Virus record (IMG/VR): IMGVR_UViG_2585427736_000018
Location: 1 to 6,498 of that record
DNA from: a virus
Lineage: Duplodnaviria > Heunggongvirae > Uroviricota > Caudoviricetes
Strand: one strand, 5' to 3'
Length of the DNA stretch: 6,498 bases
The notes under the pieces were generated by a model. The model saw only the letters and a program-made list of their open reading frames with translations, ran no database searches and was not told the origin of the DNA. Below, piece after piece: positions 1-6,498 of the stretch (position 1 is its first letter; each line of letters starts with the position of its first letter). Position numbers and translations under genes: made by a program.

Positions 1-576
1 TTGCATTTGCCAGAGCTTGACGATGTTGCTTGGATGAAGGGTGTATTGATGCTAAATGTAAGGTTTGATTCAGAAAAGGCTTTAGAGGCCATTCTGTACG
101 TCGCCTCTAAAGCACCGATCCCAGATATCTATCATGTCGGAAAAATTCTTTATTATGCTGACAGGTTTCACCTTGAAAGTTTTGGACGCCTCATAACGGG
201 CGATCACTATAACGCTATGAAGGATGGGCCTGTAGCAAGCAACACATACGATATTATAAAAATTGCTCGTGGAGATGGACGTTACATTCCTAATGGTTGT
301 GATGTCGATTCTGTGCGAAAAGCATTTTCTGTATCAGGTATGACGATTGTGCCGAGCCGTGAAGCTGATGAAGACTTTTTTAGTGACTCAGATTTAGAGT
401 GTATTGATAAGTCTATCGCGATGCTTGGAAACATGTCCTTTGAAGCTATCAGAACCATGAGCCATGACGCGGCATGGGAACAGGCAGATCACAATGGTGA
501 GATGTCTTTGGAATCGATAGTTGCACAGCTAAAAAATAGCAAATTAATACTGGATTATCTGAAGAACGGATATTGA
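1..576 (+). CDS. Panacea/DUF4065-domain protein (PanA/SocA/GepA-like putative antitoxin); 5' end may lie upstream of the window
   Basis: Frame 1 is open from base 1 (first codon TTG, first in-window ATG at 34) to stop TGA 574-576. The segment HVGKILYYADRFHLESFGRLITGDHYNAMKDGPVASNTYDII matches the Panacea core pattern as I recall it (K-h-LYYA...G...Y.A...GPV...Y). The C-terminal LECIDKSIAMLGNMSFEAIRTMSHDAAWEQA resembles the family's conserved C-terminal helix. Recognition is from memory, not a search. Confidence 0.6.
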   Translation: MHLPELDDVAWMKGVLMLNVRFDSEKALEAILYVASKAPIPDIYHVGKILYYADRFHLESFGRLITGDHYNAMKDGPVASNTYDIIKIARGDGRYIPNGCDVDSVRKAFSVSGMTIVPSREADEDFFSDSDLECIDKSIAMLGNMSFEAIRTMSHDAAWEQADHNGEMSLESIVAQLKNSKLILDYLKNGY

Positions 577-581
577 TACTT

Positions 582-1043
582 ATGCTGGGTGATTGTTTCC
601 CTCCTGATTTTAAGGCTAATTTTAGTCGTGAAAGAGGTATATCACCCGGTGATGTATTGTATCTTCATTGTGATTTTACGACCCCACCTAAAGTAAAGTA
701 TATGGTGGTTGTTTGCTGTGAACCTCTTTTAGTTCTTCTAATAAATTCAGATATAAATGAATTTATTAAGAGAAACAATGATCTTATGGCTTGTCAGGTC
801 GAAATTAATAGAGAGGACCATGATTTTCTTAAATGGGACTCATTTGTTAATTGCATTGAGGCTCATGCTGCTTTCGATCTTGAAATTATTAAAGAGAAAA
901 TAGCCATCCAATATGGTGACGTGCTAAAAGGTCGCATTACAGATCATTGTATGAGACAAGTTCGATGTGCAGTTGAGATATCTAAAACTATGGTTAAACG
1001 GCATAAAAAACTGATACTCGCTGCTCTTCAACATTATGAATAA
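582..1043 (+). CDS. hypothetical protein, 153 aa; candidate toxin/effector partner of the upstream Panacea-domain gene
   Basis: ATG at 582 lies 5 nt after the upstream stop (in-frame TTG at 573 is the alternative start); stop TAA 1041-1043 sits inside the terminator hairpin. Only a weak GGA Shine-Dalgarno, so translational coupling is likely. Visibly AT-rich. No transmembrane segment or catalytic motif recognised. The toxin role is inferred only from its position beside a Panacea-domain gene. Confidence 0.5.
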   Translation: MLGDCFPPDFKANFSRERGISPGDVLYLHCDFTTPPKVKYMVVVCCEPLLVLLINSDINEFIKRNNDLMACQVEINREDHDFLKWDSFVNCIEAHAAFDLEIIKEKIAIQYGDVLKGRITDHCMRQVRCAVEISKTMVKRHKKLILAALQHYE

Positions 1044-1072
1044 ACCCATCTTTGGATGGGTTTATTCATATT
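1035..1072. terminator. bidirectional intrinsic terminator between convergent transcription units
   Basis: Perfect 16-bp inverted repeat TATGAATAAACCCATC (1035-1050) / GATGGGTTTATTCATA (1055-1070) with 4-nt loop TTTG. GC core CCCATC/GATGGG, with A-rich and T-rich flanks giving a U-rich tail in both orientations. It overlaps the stop of the 582-1043 CDS and lies 7 nt from the stop of the minus-strand 1077-1349 CDS. Confidence 0.7.
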
Positions 1073-1076
1073 CTAT

Positions 1077-1349
1077 TTAAATGAGCCTTTGTTTATGGGT
1101 TCTGACCCTTTCCCACTCAGCACGCCCTTCTTCTCGCCTTTTGTCTATGTATTCCGCAAGATCCTGAATATTGATGCAACGTTTTGCTTTTTGTGATGTG
1201 CCGATGCGATATGTTGGAACGGGCAACTTACAAGCGTTTGCTTTTGCTTCTGCCGTGGCTGGACTCATACCAAAGTACTTTTGGCTAACTGCTGAGAGTT
1301 CAATGTTTGGGGTATTGAATTCAGCCATCAGTAAAAACAAGGTGTTCAT
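1077..1349 (-). CDS. PrtN-family (pyocin-activator-like) small DNA-binding protein; possible excisionase/recombination directionality factor or regulator
   Basis: ATG at 1349-1347 is preceded by GGAG at 6-nt spacing; the ORF track's upstream start at 1376 is a GTG without a better RBS. The N-terminus MNTLFLLMAEF...YIDKRREE resembles PrtN-family proteins found next to integration modules in prophages (recalled similarity). Stop TAA at 1079-1077. Confidence 0.55.
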   Translation of the reverse strand: MNTLFLLMAEFNTPNIELSAVSQKYFGMSPATAEAKANACKLPVPTYRIGTSQKAKRCINIQDLAEYIDKRREEGRAEWERVRTHKQRLI

Positions 1350-1385
1350 AATTTTCTCCATCAAAACCGGCTGCACCCGGGAAAA

Positions 1386-1958
1386 TCATAATTCTGTGCT
1401 GGTGGCAGGAATTAATTTCTGCCAGATAGCGGAAACATATTTTGCCTGATGACGGGCATCAGCCAGGGCGTTGTGCCGTTCGCCATCGAAAGGCATGTCC
1501 ATTTTGGGGTCGAATCCGATGGAACGCCCAAGCGTAACGATCGTGCGTACATCGTGGTCATTCCAGTATGCCCACGGGCAGATTTGTCCTGCTCGCTCAT
1601 AAGCTCCACGTAAAATTACGTTGTCGAAGGTGGCTCCGTTACCCCAGACTTTTAAATATTTCGTATTGTCTGCGTGCCGGTTAATGAAATGATTTAGTTC
1701 TGAGAGAGCATCGCTGATCGACAAAGTATCATCAATACAGATTGCAGCTCGTGCTTCAGGGCTTTGTTTCAACCACCACAGGATGGTATCGCCGTCAGGT
1801 GTAGCTCCTTGCTCCATAGCACTTTCCAGGCTAACAACCGTATAGAATTCTTGTCCGATGTCTCCGGTTTCTGGAGTGAAGAACACCGCGCCAATGGAAA
1901 CGATCGGTGCATCCTTATTTTTCCCCATCGTCTCAAGGTCGATCATTAAGTTGTTCAT
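1386..1958 (-). CDS. phage DEDDh-type 3'-5' exonuclease (DnaQ-like fold)
   Basis: Exo motifs are visible: IDLETMG (D-x-E), WGNGATFDNVIL (Exo II Asp), HNALADARH (H-x4-D). ATG at 1958-1956 is preceded by GGAGGTGA; a GTG at 1961 is the alternative start. The start overlaps the stop of the upstream DUF551 gene. Confidence 0.75.
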   Translation of the reverse strand: MNNLMIDLETMGKNKDAPIVSIGAVFFTPETGDIGQEFYTVVSLESAMEQGATPDGDTILWWLKQSPEARAAICIDDTLSISDALSELNHFINRHADNTKYLKVWGNGATFDNVILRGAYERAGQICPWAYWNDHDVRTIVTLGRSIGFDPKMDMPFDGERHNALADARHQAKYVSAIWQKLIPATSTEL

Positions 1959-2524
1959 CACTTCACCTCCAGCGGCGGTTCCGGTAGCGGCATCCAGTGA
2001 GTTGCTTGCTCAATACCATTACCCGGCTTAATCGTTGCATCTCCGCGCCGAAATGTGCTTCCGGTATAGCGTGCTGAACATATTAGCGGCTCAACCAGAG
2101 AGCTATCGAAATTCACCGAAATAAGCACATTCTGATGCTTCTCAGGCATTCGCTTACTACAGCTTATCCAGCTATCCGGAGTTACCGGATAGTTGCCATT
2201 TACATCGAAGTTTGGCTCTGCGTCCTGAACTAGGAGGATGTAACCATTTTTGGCTGTATCAAGTTCTAACGCCTCGGTGACGGTACCGAAATAGCGATTA
2301 CCTAAATCAGCATCACAAGTGCTTACATCAATGGAAACTTCCATGCCTTCGATTAATTCTGGCAAGTTGTAAGTTTGGCTTACAGGCTCTGCTTCCAGCG
2401 ATACCAGTGCAATTCGTGCCAGTTCTTCCGCTTCTTCTGCTGGCAGTACAACGTTGCTACCCGGTCCGTATGTTTCGCGCCACTGCTGGATTGTCAGCAG
2501 GCGTTCTTTGGTAATAGTGATCAT
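1958..2524 (-). CDS. DUF551-like phage protein
   Basis: ATG at 2524-2522 overlaps the upstream stop in an ATGA arrangement. The C-terminal WMPLPEPP motif is what I recall as the hallmark of DUF551 proteins common in enterobacterial prophage early regions. Acidic protein. Confidence 0.5.
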   Translation of the reverse strand: MITITKERLLTIQQWRETYGPGSNVVLPAEEAEELARIALVSLEAEPVSQTYNLPELIEGMEVSIDVSTCDADLGNRYFGTVTEALELDTAKNGYILLVQDAEPNFDVNGNYPVTPDSWISCSKRMPEKHQNVLISVNFDSSLVEPLICSARYTGSTFRRGDATIKPGNGIEQATHWMPLPEPPLEVK

Positions 2525-3036
2525 GCTGCGTTTCCTTCTTTCTTATTAACAATTACACCGTCATATATTTCATTAAGGTGCCCTCTCAACTCCATGCGCC
2601 TTAATGCAGATAACATGTAATCGCATTCAACCTGCTTATTTCCAGTAAATGGCTTATCGTCAGGATTACCCCAACAGCAATTACCCTTGGGCCACCCATG
2701 TACTTTCCGTACTCTTCCGTTAACAACGTGAAGTAATCCCCAGCCAGCTGGTAAATCCTCAACTGAAATAATTCCCGGCTCACTAATAAAGAATCGCCAG
2801 TCGCCCATTCCAAGAGACGGATTTTTACGGAAACGCTTTTTTCTATCTGCCAACAAGTCAGCACGAGAACACTTCGCCTCTATCAGGCATGATGCTGAAT
2901 TTCTGAATCCCATAGCATCTGGCTGTTCTCCGGTACTGGTTACAGCTATAAAGCGGTCATGAAAACAAACCTTGAACCCGTTGCGCTTAAGGAACTTATA
3001 CGCAATCTGACAGAGTTCGCGGTGTGTTAACGCCAT
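2521..3036 (-). CDS. PD-(D/E)xK nuclease-like phage protein, 171 aa
   Basis: ATG at 3036-3034 is preceded by AAAGGAGAG at 6-nt spacing; the ORF track's longer form starts at a GTG at 3108 and overlaps the upstream small gene, so it is rejected. The motif GEQPDAMGF...(13 aa)...CLIEAKCS fits PD...(D/E)xK spacing. Family assignment is tentative. Confidence 0.5.
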   Translation of the reverse strand: MALTHRELCQIAYKFLKRNGFKVCFHDRFIAVTSTGEQPDAMGFRNSASCLIEAKCSRADLLADRKKRFRKNPSLGMGDWRFFISEPGIISVEDLPAGWGLLHVVNGRVRKVHGWPKGNCCWGNPDDKPFTGNKQVECDYMLSALRRMELRGHLNEIYDGVIVNKKEGNAA

Positions 3037-3037
3037 A

Positions 3038-3226
3038 TCACTCTCCTTTAGTACGCAAGTGGTTTTTCCAGCGGTTTTGCGCCGCGCTGGGCTTTTTGCA
3101 AAAACCACAATCCATCATCCCGTAATGTTTCATTAACCCCACCCGTCGGTTGCTGAGTCTCACCCACTGCCAGACGCCAGGAGCGTTTCTACGAACTAAC
3201 AGAATCTTTGCTTTACGGTTTTTCAT
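3038..3226 (-). CDS. small hypothetical phage protein, 62 aa, basic
   Basis: ATG at 3226-3224 is preceded by AGGAG at about 9-nt spacing. Stop TGA at 3040-3038 is one base upstream of the next gene's ATG (TGAtATG), placing it inside the coupled operon. No recognised domain; contains a single C-x2-C. Confidence 0.45.
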   Translation of the reverse strand: MKNRKAKILLVRRNAPGVWQWVRLSNRRVGLMKHYGMMDCGFCKKPSAAQNRWKNHLRTKGE

Positions 3227-3398
3227 CGTTTTGCTCTCCTGCGTTTCTTTGCTGCTCGTCGTGCCGATGCAATACCGGTATGGCGGCGCTTTGGTGCCGG
3301 GATGATGTTGTCAGCCATCAGGACATGTGGCTTTGCAATTAGCGCAGAAGCCCAAAAACGAGTCGGGTACGGTAACAAGCCGATACATGCCACACGCA

Positions 3399-4046
3399 CT
3401 ACTCACCTCCGTTGATGCGAATGCCAGCGGCACGGGAATCATTCCATCGCTTTACTTCTTCACGAATTACGTCAATGCATTCTTTCGAATCCATTAGGTA
3501 ATCTTCATCAAAAAGCCTTTCCTGTTCGTTTTCTATCGCAACAATGATTGCTTCAACTAACTTTTGTGCCTGAGAACCACTTTCTAACTCTGCAATGCGC
3601 TTCTCTGCGGCTTCCAGCTTCTCGCGCATATCGTCAACGTACTCGACCAGAGATCCGCCAGCAGGAATTTCGCACTCCTCGACCAGTTGGAAGTAGATAT
3701 CAGCTGCGGCCCGTGTGTTGCTATGCCTAGCGTCGCCCATCTCACCTTCACGAAGAGCATCGCGTTCGGCGGTAAGATTGGCTATTTTGCTGTCTTTGCC
3801 TTCCAGCTCAACGCGCAGCTTCCCTACCGTAAGCGCAATATCCTCGTTCTCCTGGTCACGGCGTTTGATGTATTGCTGGTTTCTTTCCCGTTCATCCAAC
3901 AATGCCAGCGCGATATCTGGCGAAAAGTGCTTCATAAAATCGTTAAGCGCATTAATTCGCTGATCGAAAGGCATTACAGGTGCTTCACCAGCAATTTTTG
4001 TTTTTTCAGCGATTTCACGAAGCTTTTGATAATCAATCTTGCTCAC
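3399..4046 (-). CDS. Ead/Ea22-like coiled-coil phage protein
   Basis: GTG start at 4046-4044 is preceded by a strong AAGGAGG at 6-nt spacing and overlaps the upstream stop (GTGA). The N-terminus MSKIDYQKLREIAEK and the Glu/Arg/Leu-rich heptad-like middle resemble lambda Ea22-family early-left proteins (recalled). Confidence 0.5.
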   Translation of the reverse strand: MSKIDYQKLREIAEKTKIAGEAPVMPFDQRINALNDFMKHFSPDIALALLDERERNQQYIKRRDQENEDIALTVGKLRVELEGKDSKIANLTAERDALREGEMGDARHSNTRAAADIYFQLVEECEIPAGGSLVEYVDDMREKLEAAEKRIAELESGSQAQKLVEAIIVAIENEQERLFDEDYLMDSKECIDVIREEVKRWNDSRAAGIRINGGE

Positions 4047-4591
4047 TGGTTGCCTCCTTTGCGAAGCTCTGCAGCGAAATATACAGCTGCGGAAACAATA
4101 GCTGCATGTCGGTATTCACCATCAGAAAATAAAGAATCTCCCTTAAGTGCATTGACGATACTCTGATGATTTTTTGCCAGCATCTCCACGCCCTGCGCCC
4201 GTACTTCAGCCAGAAAAGCATCGGTGGCTGGCATATTTCCTGTTGCCTTCATGGCCTCCAAAATAACCAGAACGCCATCTCGCCCAACCACCTCAGCGAT
4301 AACCTCGGTGTTGTCGCCAACAACATCGCAGAATGCCTGAACTGCCTTACGAGCCAGTTCATTCTCCGCCGCCAGCGCCGAAAACTTCTCGTGTGCCAAC
4401 TTAACAGCCGCATCAGCCTGCTTAATTGACTCAATCGCTCTCTGCTGGTCTTCGGACAGAGCCGAAATCTTGGCCTCCGCTTCAGCAAATTTACGCACCA
4501 GATATTCAGCGTTTGTTTCGTTAACTTTTAAATCTCGTGGTACACATTTCCCGCGAAGAAACCCTTCCATTTCGAAAACATTCATGCGCAT
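4043..4591 (-). CDS. hypothetical phage protein, 182 aa, Ala-rich with predicted coiled-coil N-terminal half; sits where yfdS sits in CPS-53
   Basis: ATG at 4591-4589 is preceded by GGAG at 8-nt spacing; the coding region overlaps the yfdR-like stop by 10 nt (an alternative ATG at 4585 gives an ATGA overlap). No recognised catalytic motif. Confidence 0.5.
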   Translation of the reverse strand: MRMNVFEMEGFLRGKCVPRDLKVNETNAEYLVRKFAEAEAKISALSEDQQRAIESIKQADAAVKLAHEKFSALAAENELARKAVQAFCDVVGDNTEVIAEVVGRDGVLVILEAMKATGNMPATDAFLAEVRAQGVEMLAKNHQSIVNALKGDSLFSDGEYRHAAIVSAAVYFAAELRKGGNQ

Positions 4592-5118
4592 TTGCGTAAC
4601 TCCGATAACTCGTTAAAACGTTCCATAAACATCCCATAGGCATGGCCTGGCGACAGTGGAATCACGTTGAACATCTCTGTTGCCGGGATGCCTTCCAGTA
4701 CAGGCCAGAAAGAGCCATCATCAAGCCCGAGATCGCGGCGTTCGGTTGCCAGCATGATAAGATCGGCATATTTCACGGGCGTGCTCATAACCGGGGGTAA
4801 CCCGTATTTCTCACGGATTACGGCGTCTATTTTTTCTTCCATCCGTTTATAGTCAGGAAGAAGGCGTTTCAGTGGCGCGGGGATGTCCTGACAATACGCT
4901 TCTGTTGCATCATGCATTAACGCTTCGAAAGCAAACTCCTGCGGTACCAGTTGGCTGCAAAGCACCGCATGTTGGGCGACGCTGTAGAAGTGTGAAAGAT
5001 GTCCTGCAAAGCGACAGATATTTGAAAGGGAAACCGCGATATCGTTAATCACGATGTCGTCTTTATCTATCCTGTCATAATAAAAATGCTTCCCGGAAAA
5101 AGTTTTAATAAATGACAT
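4582..5118 (-). CDS. yfdR: HD-domain phosphohydrolase, YfdR-like 5'-deoxynucleotidase
   Basis: ATG at 5118-5116 is preceded by GGAG at 7-nt spacing (the ORF track's longer form starts at a GTG at 5145). The product is 178 aa, the length I recall for E. coli YfdR. HD motifs are visible: AQHAV (His), LMHDATEAY (His-Asp) and a downstream Asp in CQDIP. Confidence 0.7.
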   Translation of the reverse strand: MSFIKTFSGKHFYYDRIDKDDIVINDIAVSLSNICRFAGHLSHFYSVAQHAVLCSQLVPQEFAFEALMHDATEAYCQDIPAPLKRLLPDYKRMEEKIDAVIREKYGLPPVMSTPVKYADLIMLATERRDLGLDDGSFWPVLEGIPATEMFNVIPLSPGHAYGMFMERFNELSELRKCA

Positions 5119-5211
5119 TTTGTTCTCCACGTATATGCGCTGCACCGCGCTGAATTCTGGTAAAAGGAAGCCCTCACCATCCGGTGATTATTGAGTTAAT
5201 TACGTTTCCAT

Positions 5212-5233
5212 AAATGCCCCCGCAGGGGCATTT
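5212..5233 (-). other. intergenic stem-loop between yfdQ-like and yfdR-like genes (possible attenuator or mRNA-stabilising hairpin)
   Basis: Perfect 9-bp inverted repeat AAATGCCCC (5212-5220) / GGGGCATTT (5225-5233) with loop CGCA, 12 nt downstream of the yfdQ-like stop on the minus strand. No clean U-tract follows in either orientation, so it is not called a terminator. Confidence 0.45.
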
Positions 5234-5245
5234 GCAGTAATGAAA

Positions 5246-6070
5246 TCAGGCGGTGAAAGTACCAATAAAGGTTTCGACTTTGCTGTCTTTGAATTTCTCA
5301 ACAAGCAGATCACGAAATTCGTTAGCCATTTCTTCCTGCACCGCTTCCAGCTGAATAATGCGCAGAACCAGTACAGGACGATCGCCAGTGATAATGCTGA
5401 GGCGTAATTTAAATGGACGTTCTTTCAGACCTTCAAACGGAACGCATTTAAATTCAAATGCCACTGGCATAATATCTTTGGTCTTCGCTTCGACAGACTC
5501 CATCAGGGAGCGTTTGCCGCTGAAGTCATTATCTTCAAAATCAGCGGTCTGGTTTGCTTCAATCGTGATTTTACGGACCGCCGCAGCCGCTTTTGTTGCC
5601 TGAATGGTGTCACCATTAGCATCAAAGCCCACAAGGTAGTCGGCCCAGTCTTCAATCCATTCTGCCAGTGATTTCTGGGAGTTACGCTCGCCATTAACAG
5701 ACAACAGAGCAGAGAACGGTGCTGTCTTTTTCAGTTTGAGAGTGGCGGTGTTATCTGCGTGACCTGGTTCATCAATAGTACCCAGGTTAAGCACACTGAC
5801 GGCACGCATATTATCAGCATCGATAAAGCAGCGGGTGCCTTCATCTGCAAGATCTTTAGAATAACGGGTAAAGTCATCGATGCTGGCAGTGGAAAGCGCA
5901 CCACGGAAACGGAAGCGATTTAAATTAAATTTTTCCAGATCATGAATGCGGAAATTCTCAGGCAATGCCACAGCATCGGCACCAATCTTACTGATAATTT
6001 CATTAACACCCTGAGCAGAAATAAGGGCATGGATTTGATTAATTGCGGTTGCGTCTAAGTTCTGAGACAT
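5246..6070 (-). CDS. yfdQ: DUF2303-family phage protein, YfdQ-like
   Basis: ATG at 6070-6068 is preceded by GAGGA at 6-nt spacing. The product is 274 aa, the length I recall for E. coli CPS-53 YfdQ, and it sits immediately upstream of the yfdR-like gene as in CPS-53. Confidence 0.65.
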
Positions 6071-6135
6071 AATAAGTCCTCACTATATAAAGATATTCAG
6101 TGATGAGATAAATAATCAGTTAATTAAAAACGATA

Positions 6136-6498
6136 TTAACGACCTGCTGCGCGGAGTTTTCCGTCAGGTTCACCGGCAAGAGTCAGTAACTGTCCCTGGT
6201 CTTCCTGCAGAATAGTCAGGCGACCACCGCGATTGACATACATCGGTGTTTCGGTGGTGTCTTCTTCGGAAATATTCCCGCGGTTAGTCGGGCGATCATA
6301 TGAGAGTTTGTGTTTGATTTTCACACGGTTCTCATCAAATGGTTCGATTTCCAGGTTGAGTGAGACCTTACCTTTGGTTTTCGTGTTCATCACACCGGAA
6401 GCGACTTCACTGAGAACTGCGCCGATTTTGGTTTCAAATACGCCGCCGTCCAGCTCCCCGATAAATGCCTGCACATCAGTACTGCGTTCGCTAGCCAT
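6136..6498 (-). CDS. hypothetical phage protein in the yfdP position; start codon coincides with the window edge
   Basis: ATG at 6498-6496 is the last three bases of the window, so the RBS cannot be seen and the ORF could extend further. Stop TAA at 6138-6136. The 120-aa product and its position upstream of yfdQ are consistent with a YfdP-like gene (synteny only). Confidence 0.45.
   Translation of the reverse strand: MASERSTDVQAFIGELDGGVFETKIGAVLSEVASGVMNTKTKGKVSLNLEIEPFDENRVKIKHKLSYDRPTNRGNISEEDTTETPMYVNRGGRLTILQEDQGQLLTLAGEPDGKLRAAGR

Follow-up and report, generated by a model that had tools for sequence, protein, structure and literature searches.

The window analysed here is the whole stretch of 6,498 nt that makes up positions 1 to 6,498 of IMG/VR virus record IMGVR_UViG_2585427736_000018 (Caudoviricetes). 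It begins with two short genes on one strand, panA (open reading frame 1, ORF1) and panT (ORF2). The second, at positions 582-1043, runs from ATG 582 to TAA 1041-1043 and encodes 153 amino acids (aa). It probably specifies PanT, the toxin of a type II PanA-PanT module carried on a dusA prophage, which is predicted to be a MazF-like endoribonuclease neutralised by PanA. RefSeq places a gene with identical coordinates in Escherichia coli ACN002 (WP_000900143.1, 'hypothetical protein'), and the exact protein is found in E. coli and Salmonella on at least 1000 contigs. The gene panT is real and conserved.

Two codons compete for the start of panT. A TTG at 573 is in frame and overlaps the stop codon of panA (TTGA), and the sole element resembling a Shine–Dalgarno (SD) sequence before ATG 582 is a GGA 11 nt ahead of it, so that the ambiguous start and weak SD pointed out in an original prediction, made from the letters of the DNA, are both confirmed. 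ATG 582 is favoured because RefSeq uses it and because the homologues nearest to PanT share this start ('MLGD…' or 'MLSD…'). The junction between the two genes is likely to be a site of translational coupling. The coding sequence is AT-rich, as had been remarked, with a GC content of 35.1% and a third-position GC content (GC3) of 23.4%, against 44-50% and 40-52% in nine neighbouring phage genes; the values for panA are 41.7% and 38.0%. The GC3 contrast inside this one operon (38% in panA vs 23% in panT) is much larger than that between the pair members at eight other loci. It could reflect separate origins through partner swapping or selection for poor codon usage in the toxin.

The partner gene identifies the setting. 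PanA matches Pfam PF13274 (SocA_Panacea) over residues 48-159 with an E-value of 5e-20 and is named 'Panacea domain-containing protein' in RefSeq; the 5′ end of panA coincides with the window start or falls slightly outside it (RefSeq has the gene begin either at position 7 or 6 nt before position 1). It adjoins panT on the same strand, with a gap of 5 nt. In all eight distant panT homologues considered (28-42% identity), a Panacea gene lies directly upstream on the same strand, with gaps ranging from -14 to +42 nt, and the PanA partners of these homologues align over their full length at 33-51% identity. Adjacency to Panacea, together with homologous PanA partners, therefore indicates that the two genes travel as a stable pair, and in every relative examined the Panacea neighbour is obligate. 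The idea that a toxin-like gene is coupled to ORF1 is hence strengthened, ORF1 being a Panacea antitoxin gene and the pair being conserved in all these relatives.

Among 50,697 phage records, the only match is found in Serratia phage vB_SspS_OS31 (MT843276.1; locus L029, 2944-3974). There, a Panacea gene (E 1.4e-22) and a panT homologue with 46% identity, both annotated 'hypothetical protein', stand between the Q antiterminator gene and a methyltransferase/lysis cassette, a classic moron position. As the pair lies between phage genes, it is therefore packaged in a viable temperate phage. In a metagenomic, nanopore-type contig (L024, 1980-2959), panA is split by frameshifts into two recognisable halves next to an intact panT; the break results either from long-read assembly errors or from a pseudogene. 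This pair adjoins an MmeI-type restriction-modification gene, a defence-island-like setting. A further observation concerns the C-terminal tail of PanA (residues 160-191, DNA ∼478-573), which extends past the Pfam model and is conserved among the PanA partners (…aD.N..iS.E.i……L.eYL…) despite an overall identity of 33-51%; it is a candidate toxin-contact element. Neither tandem repeats nor an Rfam family were found around the locus, and an RNA antitoxin of type III systems (ToxN/AbiQ/CptN) was rejected for want of upstream repeats and of an Rfam match.

Table 1. Features of the panA-panT locus in window coordinates
Feature	Position	Strand	Description
panA (ORF1)	1..576	+	Panacea/SocA-domain (PF13274) antitoxin gene; stop codon TGA 574-576
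panA/panT junction	573..584	+	5-nt spacer between panA stop and ATG 582; GGA at 568-570
panT (ORF2)	582..1043	+	153-aa putative toxin with predicted MazF/PemK/Kid fold; core at about residues 22-135
Inverted repeat	1035..1070 (L001 7035-7070)		Perfect 16 bp, 4-nt loop, T-rich tail; overlaps panT stop

PanT had been described as an orphan, a view that the searches do not bear out. A word-indexed search gives 41 clusters at 90% identity with E-values from 1e-100 to 1e-25, all of 148-157 aa, in Salmonella, Enterobacter, Klebsiella, Cronobacter, Rahnella, Sodalis, Xenorhabdus, Photorhabdus, Providencia, Morganella, Erwinia and Idiomarina. When 1.84 billion representatives were searched exhaustively with a profile, 1,246 were retrieved at E ≤ 1e-3, counted as clusters at 50% identity, 621 of which reach E ≤ 1e-10; nearly all are ∼150 aa long and match end to end. 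A search for related loci with the close alignment yields 14 near relatives. One family member (P0133; L023, 2501-3226) is longer, with 241 aa that comprise a PanT domain (residues 1-145) and a C-terminal extension of ∼95 residues, and has a Panacea gene upstream. Conservation was scored over 107 diverse members that are 27-77% identical to the query. Two positions, K39 and S87, are invariant, and G23, F32, K37, N55, S56 (Ser or Thr), F82, L83 and C91 are conserved in at least 90% of members. The protein contains 8 Cys and 6 His, in agreement with the original prediction, and has an isoelectric point of 6.3; the strings that had attracted attention are mostly unconserved. The only conserved cysteines are C30 (93/107), C71 (72/107) and C91 (104/107), and CxxC was not found in the family. 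A Zn-binding or redox role was rejected on these grounds.

Structure prediction and fold search, proposed at the outset as a check, return a confident model with a MazF/PemK fold. The AlphaFold2 model, computed from a 26-sequence alignment, has a mean predicted local distance difference test score (pLDDT) of 90.3 and a predicted template modelling score of 0.84. With this model, Foldseek finds MazF-mt3 at E 7.6e-4 (probability 1.0), and the best matches in a viral library are labelled 'Endoribonuclease' and 'PemK-like protein'. Membership of PanT in the MazF fold superfamily, i.e. the SH3-like barrel of MazF and Kid, is thus well supported by the model. Three elements are added to the core, namely a helical extension at the N-terminus (residues 1-20, pLDDT 66-70), a helix inserted at 100-114 and a further helix at the C-terminus (139-148). 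By these three helices PanT is ∼40 residues longer than MazF/PemK(Kid)/EndoA (PF02452; PDB 4MZM, 6KYS, 8ZWS and 1M1F), whose antitoxin is MazE/PemI, whereas that of PanT is Panacea. The model also upholds the earlier remark that the protein has no transmembrane segment. The hydrophobic stretch 40-54, with a Kyte–Doolittle maximum of 1.77 (window of 19), is modelled as a confident β-hairpin (pLDDT >90), and a membrane toxin was rejected accordingly.

Correspondences with MazF come from a MAFFT L-INS-i alignment of PanT members with five MazF/Kid/EndoA/ChpBK sequences. In this alignment, G23-D24-V25 faces the GDV/GDI motif of MazF strand 1, I54-N55-S56 the 'I-T-x' strand that bears the catalytic Thr, Q72-V-E-I the HVEI motif and D86-S87 the DS motif, and the PanT helix 121-133 falls on the C-terminal helix of MazF. 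Position 56 is Ser or Thr in 106 of the 107 members, beside an equally conserved N55 (106/107), with a register that is uncertain by one or two residues. Given a large family and a clear MazF/PemK fold, the description of a protein with no recognisable motif is not supported.

The pair also finds a place among catalogued systems. In PanA-PanT modules, dozens of toxin families unrelated to one another have a Panacea antitoxin as their partner in type II complexes (Kurata et al. 2022 PNAS, PMC8832971). As listed in the part of Dataset S1 of that study consulted, cluster pT5 comprises proteins labelled 'hypothetical' and encoded downstream of PanA, among other groups in Photorhabdus, Pseudomonas and Bacteroidetes, with gaps mostly of -20 to +11 nt, and its representative matches EndoA/MazF with a HHpred probability of 99.5%. 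One protein listed in pT5, WP_054475897.1 of Photorhabdus heterorhabditis, falls at 90% identity into one cluster with P0033, a protein with 53% identity to the window PanT (E 9e-51); the latter therefore belongs to the pT5 family. WP_000900143.1 itself was not found in the portion of the dataset searched. The likeness extends to the arrangement, with Panacea directly upstream, antitoxin before toxin and a gap of a few nucleotides, to the proteins, which are ∼150-aa 'hypothetical proteins' without a CDD or Pfam domain, and to the HHpred label, which agrees with the fold found here. A location in a dusA prophage slot is not described for pT5 in the portion of Kurata et al. consulted. The window PanT is thus a host-native member of an already catalogued, unvalidated MazF-like cluster, neither an orphan nor a new kind of system.

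Functional evidence for this and related clusters comes from the same study. A pT5 member, PanT of Chryseobacterium bovis, is toxic in E. coli, and the pair was not validated because its PanA was toxic as well (PMC8832971). Among other clusters, the PanTs of Pseudomonas moraviensis (pT6) and Bifidobacterium ruminantium (pT27) are validated and specifically inhibit protein synthesis (PMC8832971). Both are neutralised by Panacea and similar to EndoA/PemK/MazF by HHpred, and the B. ruminantium protein is assigned to the PemK/MazF family in RefSeq; they fall in sequence clusters other than that of the window PanT. In the literature library searched, no later experimental work on the window PanT family was found.

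Several results weigh against a MazF-like endoribonuclease toxin and have to be set beside this evidence. At the sequence level, comparison of PanT with Pfam, NCBIfam, PADLOC and PHROGs gives nothing significant, with zero NCBIfam models at E ≤ 1, and the best library matches (PDC-M02B, E 0.016, and phrog_29007, E 0.0087) were taken as noise. Neither the single protein nor a profile of 107 sequences finds anything in the PDB at E ≤ 10. PF02452 (PemK_toxin) is matched neither by the query nor by any of the 107 members, and a Pfam scan of all of them produces scattered chance matches, none to PemK. BLASTP against Staphylococcus aureus MazF is non-significant (E 0.063), and hhalign gives a probability of 1% against a thin MazF profile of five sequences, whose S. 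aureus member was verified as 100% identical to PDB 4of1/4mzm. In a database search with a MazF profile, made to obtain a richer one, the best 120 matches listed are all near-identical Bacillaceae NdoA proteins, and these were not used further. Collectively, no sequence method used here ties PanT to PemK/MazF. Membership of the Pfam PemK_toxin sequence family is therefore not supported while that of the fold superfamily is, since direct sequence tests stay non-significant. A fuller profile comparison may succeed, as HHpred did for another pT5 member. The remote homology search that had been suggested earlier thus uncovered a large family and no known sequence domain in Pfam, NCBIfam or PDB.

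Other difficulties lie in the residues and in the biology of the cluster. Instead of the canonical catalytic Arg, PanT has a Lys as the basic residue ahead of strand 2 (K39 in 107/107, K37 in 97/107), the nine-residue 'G-S-E-Q-G-G' β1-β2 loop of MazF is missing from PanT, and the residue equivalences derive from sequence alignment, not from an inspected superposition. No pT5 pair has a validated toxin-antitoxin phenotype, and seven predicted PanTs from other clusters, including pT1 from E. coli and a Salmonella phage, are non-toxic in E. coli (PMC8832971). The last two facts favour an improbable alternative in which PanT is a conserved partner of PanA other than a classical toxin, either accessory and regulatory or acting as an effector on the nucleic acid of invading phages only. 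The positions of the pair in prophages and among phage morons, once next to an MmeI-type restriction-modification gene, would suit such a role, as would the proposed function of Panacea as a sensor (Ernits et al. 2023). It fits poorly with the toxicity of C. bovis PanT, with an order of antitoxin then toxin in overlapping or nearly abutting genes, which is classic type II architecture, and with a fold that is that of a toxin family.

With a Lys in place of Arg and a shortened loop, PanT may have an altered specificity or even a different target. PanT could be a Panacea-neutralised toxin with the MazF/CcdB-superfamily fold that is no RNase, the barrel serving as a scaffold for a CcdB-like gyrase poison or another binder. 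This appears quite improbable: CcdB (PDB 1VUB) scores below every MazF match and is not the best structural match of PanT. The C-terminus of CcdB differs from that of PanT, and the conserved residues of PanT fit the pattern of MazF, not that of CcdB. A tentative and rather unlikely proposal is that the family forms a clade of its own within the MazF superfamily, dedicated to Panacea and set apart by the invariant Lys, the shortened, substrate-gating β1-β2 loop and the additional helices at both termini. Such a clade might have another chemistry or target (specific tRNA or rRNA, or a non-nucleolytic target) and, in prophages, might mediate PanA-sensed abortive infection rather than addiction. 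Since Panacea is the SocA domain (PF13274), and PanA has a faint NCBIfam SocA_antitoxin match (E 0.0027), a SocAB-like type VI system may also be imagined, in which PanA, as an adaptor, would hand the toxin to ClpXP for degradation instead of inhibiting it by binding, and the toxin would block replication like SocB. This is very improbable, as the SocA equivalog scores 17 bits vs a cut-off of 190, ORF2 has no NCBIfam match even at permissive E-values, the fold of PanT is MazF-like and stable PanA:PanT complexes, typical of type II, were obtained by Kurata et al. (PMC8832971).

If PanT is a MazF-like endoribonuclease held in check by PanA, panA and panT would be co-transcribed and probably translationally coupled, and, on the model of validated PanAT pairs, PanA would bind PanT directly and so neutralise it. 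Free PanT would most likely be an endoribonuclease with sequence specificity and bring translation to a halt, because it shares the β-barrel fold of MazF/PemK/Kid. Its toxicity is suggested by the toxic relative, the fold and the gene architecture, and cleavage of RNA with a block of translation by the best structural matches, by conserved residues that map to the catalytic strand and groove of MazF and by other MazF-like PanTs. Release of PanT, upon prophage loss, antitoxin turnover or entry of an infecting phage, would lead to growth arrest. The outcome may be stabilisation of the prophage and/or abortive-infection defence, in line with general knowledge of prophage toxin-antitoxin modules and with Ernits et al. 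2023.

The surroundings of the pair are those of a prophage end. In E. coli, 105 bp left over from the 5′ end of dusA stand on one side of it, marking where a prophage that integrates into dusA is attached, and a gene for a PrtN-like excisionase (xis) stands on the other. A sequence resembling a promoter is located immediately upstream of panA, beyond the window (L001, 5953-5982). The inverted repeat at the end of panT (Table 1) folds as RNA with an energy of -23 kcal/mol (z = -7.4), a value matched by none of 200 shuffled sequences, and is likely an intrinsic terminator common to panAT on the plus strand and the convergent xis on the minus strand. Beyond xis extends a leftward early operon with exonuclease, DUF551, yfdR, yfdQ and yfdP genes. 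Of 5,426 complete E. coli genomes, 46 carry the 1.1-kb panAT segment, 45 of them at ≥99% identity and all on the chromosome; it was not found in a plasmid collection. Fragments of the neighbouring xis-exo backbone are seen in 1,826 genomes. The pair is thus low-GC cargo at the attachment-site end of a prophage, and the cargo in the slot between the dusA remnant and xis is variable. Instead of panAT, E. coli CX15 and 08-3914 (L032/L033, 2019-2922) carry there an unrelated pair of 177 and 57 aa (WP_000956557.1 and WP_000654815.1). This alternative cassette was rejected as a second Panacea pair, with no Pfam/Panacea match and no similarity to PanA.

The composition of the E. coli copy bears on its origin. 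Homologues of panT elsewhere track the composition of their hosts, from 34% to 66% GC, and AT-richness as a trait of the PanT family was rejected, one locus reaching 66%. Because the homologues follow host composition, the low GC content seen in E. coli reflects the origin of that copy and not a family property, which is compatible with transfer of panAT from a lower-GC enterobacterial lineage. The horizontal acquisition suggested in the original prediction is reasonable, given low-GC cargo in so few genomes vs a far more widespread backbone.

Two side observations concern the rest of the window. The gene at 2521-3108 on the minus strand encodes a 195-aa protein (phrog_9263/phrog_631) with no Pfam match; its '…D-x(n)-E-A-K…' stretch (PDAMGF…LIEAKCSRAD) recalls the PD-(D/E)XK nuclease motif, and it has a faint PHROG match to a 'DNA repair protein' (E 0.0016). 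In the leftward early operon, successive genes share 4-10 nt in overlaps of the ATGA type (1958-1961, 2521-2524, 4043-4046 and 4582-4591), as is typical of translational coupling in lambdoid early-left operons.

Taken as a whole, the analysis leaves current understanding in place and represents a modest advance, unless the altered active site confers a new activity or a role in defence is shown. It provides a fold and a likely function for a protein that bears the label 'hypothetical' on no fewer than 1000 contigs of E. coli and Salmonella and places it in the PanAT network, in a family of >1,200 sequence clusters that still has no Pfam or NCBIfam model. The sole pT5 pair tested so far failed, its antitoxin being toxic in a heterologous host, and the E. 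coli copy, in a native and tractable host, would be a convenient pT5 representative for validation. The same copy may be used to ask whether a prophage-borne PanAT shields the lysogen from other phages.
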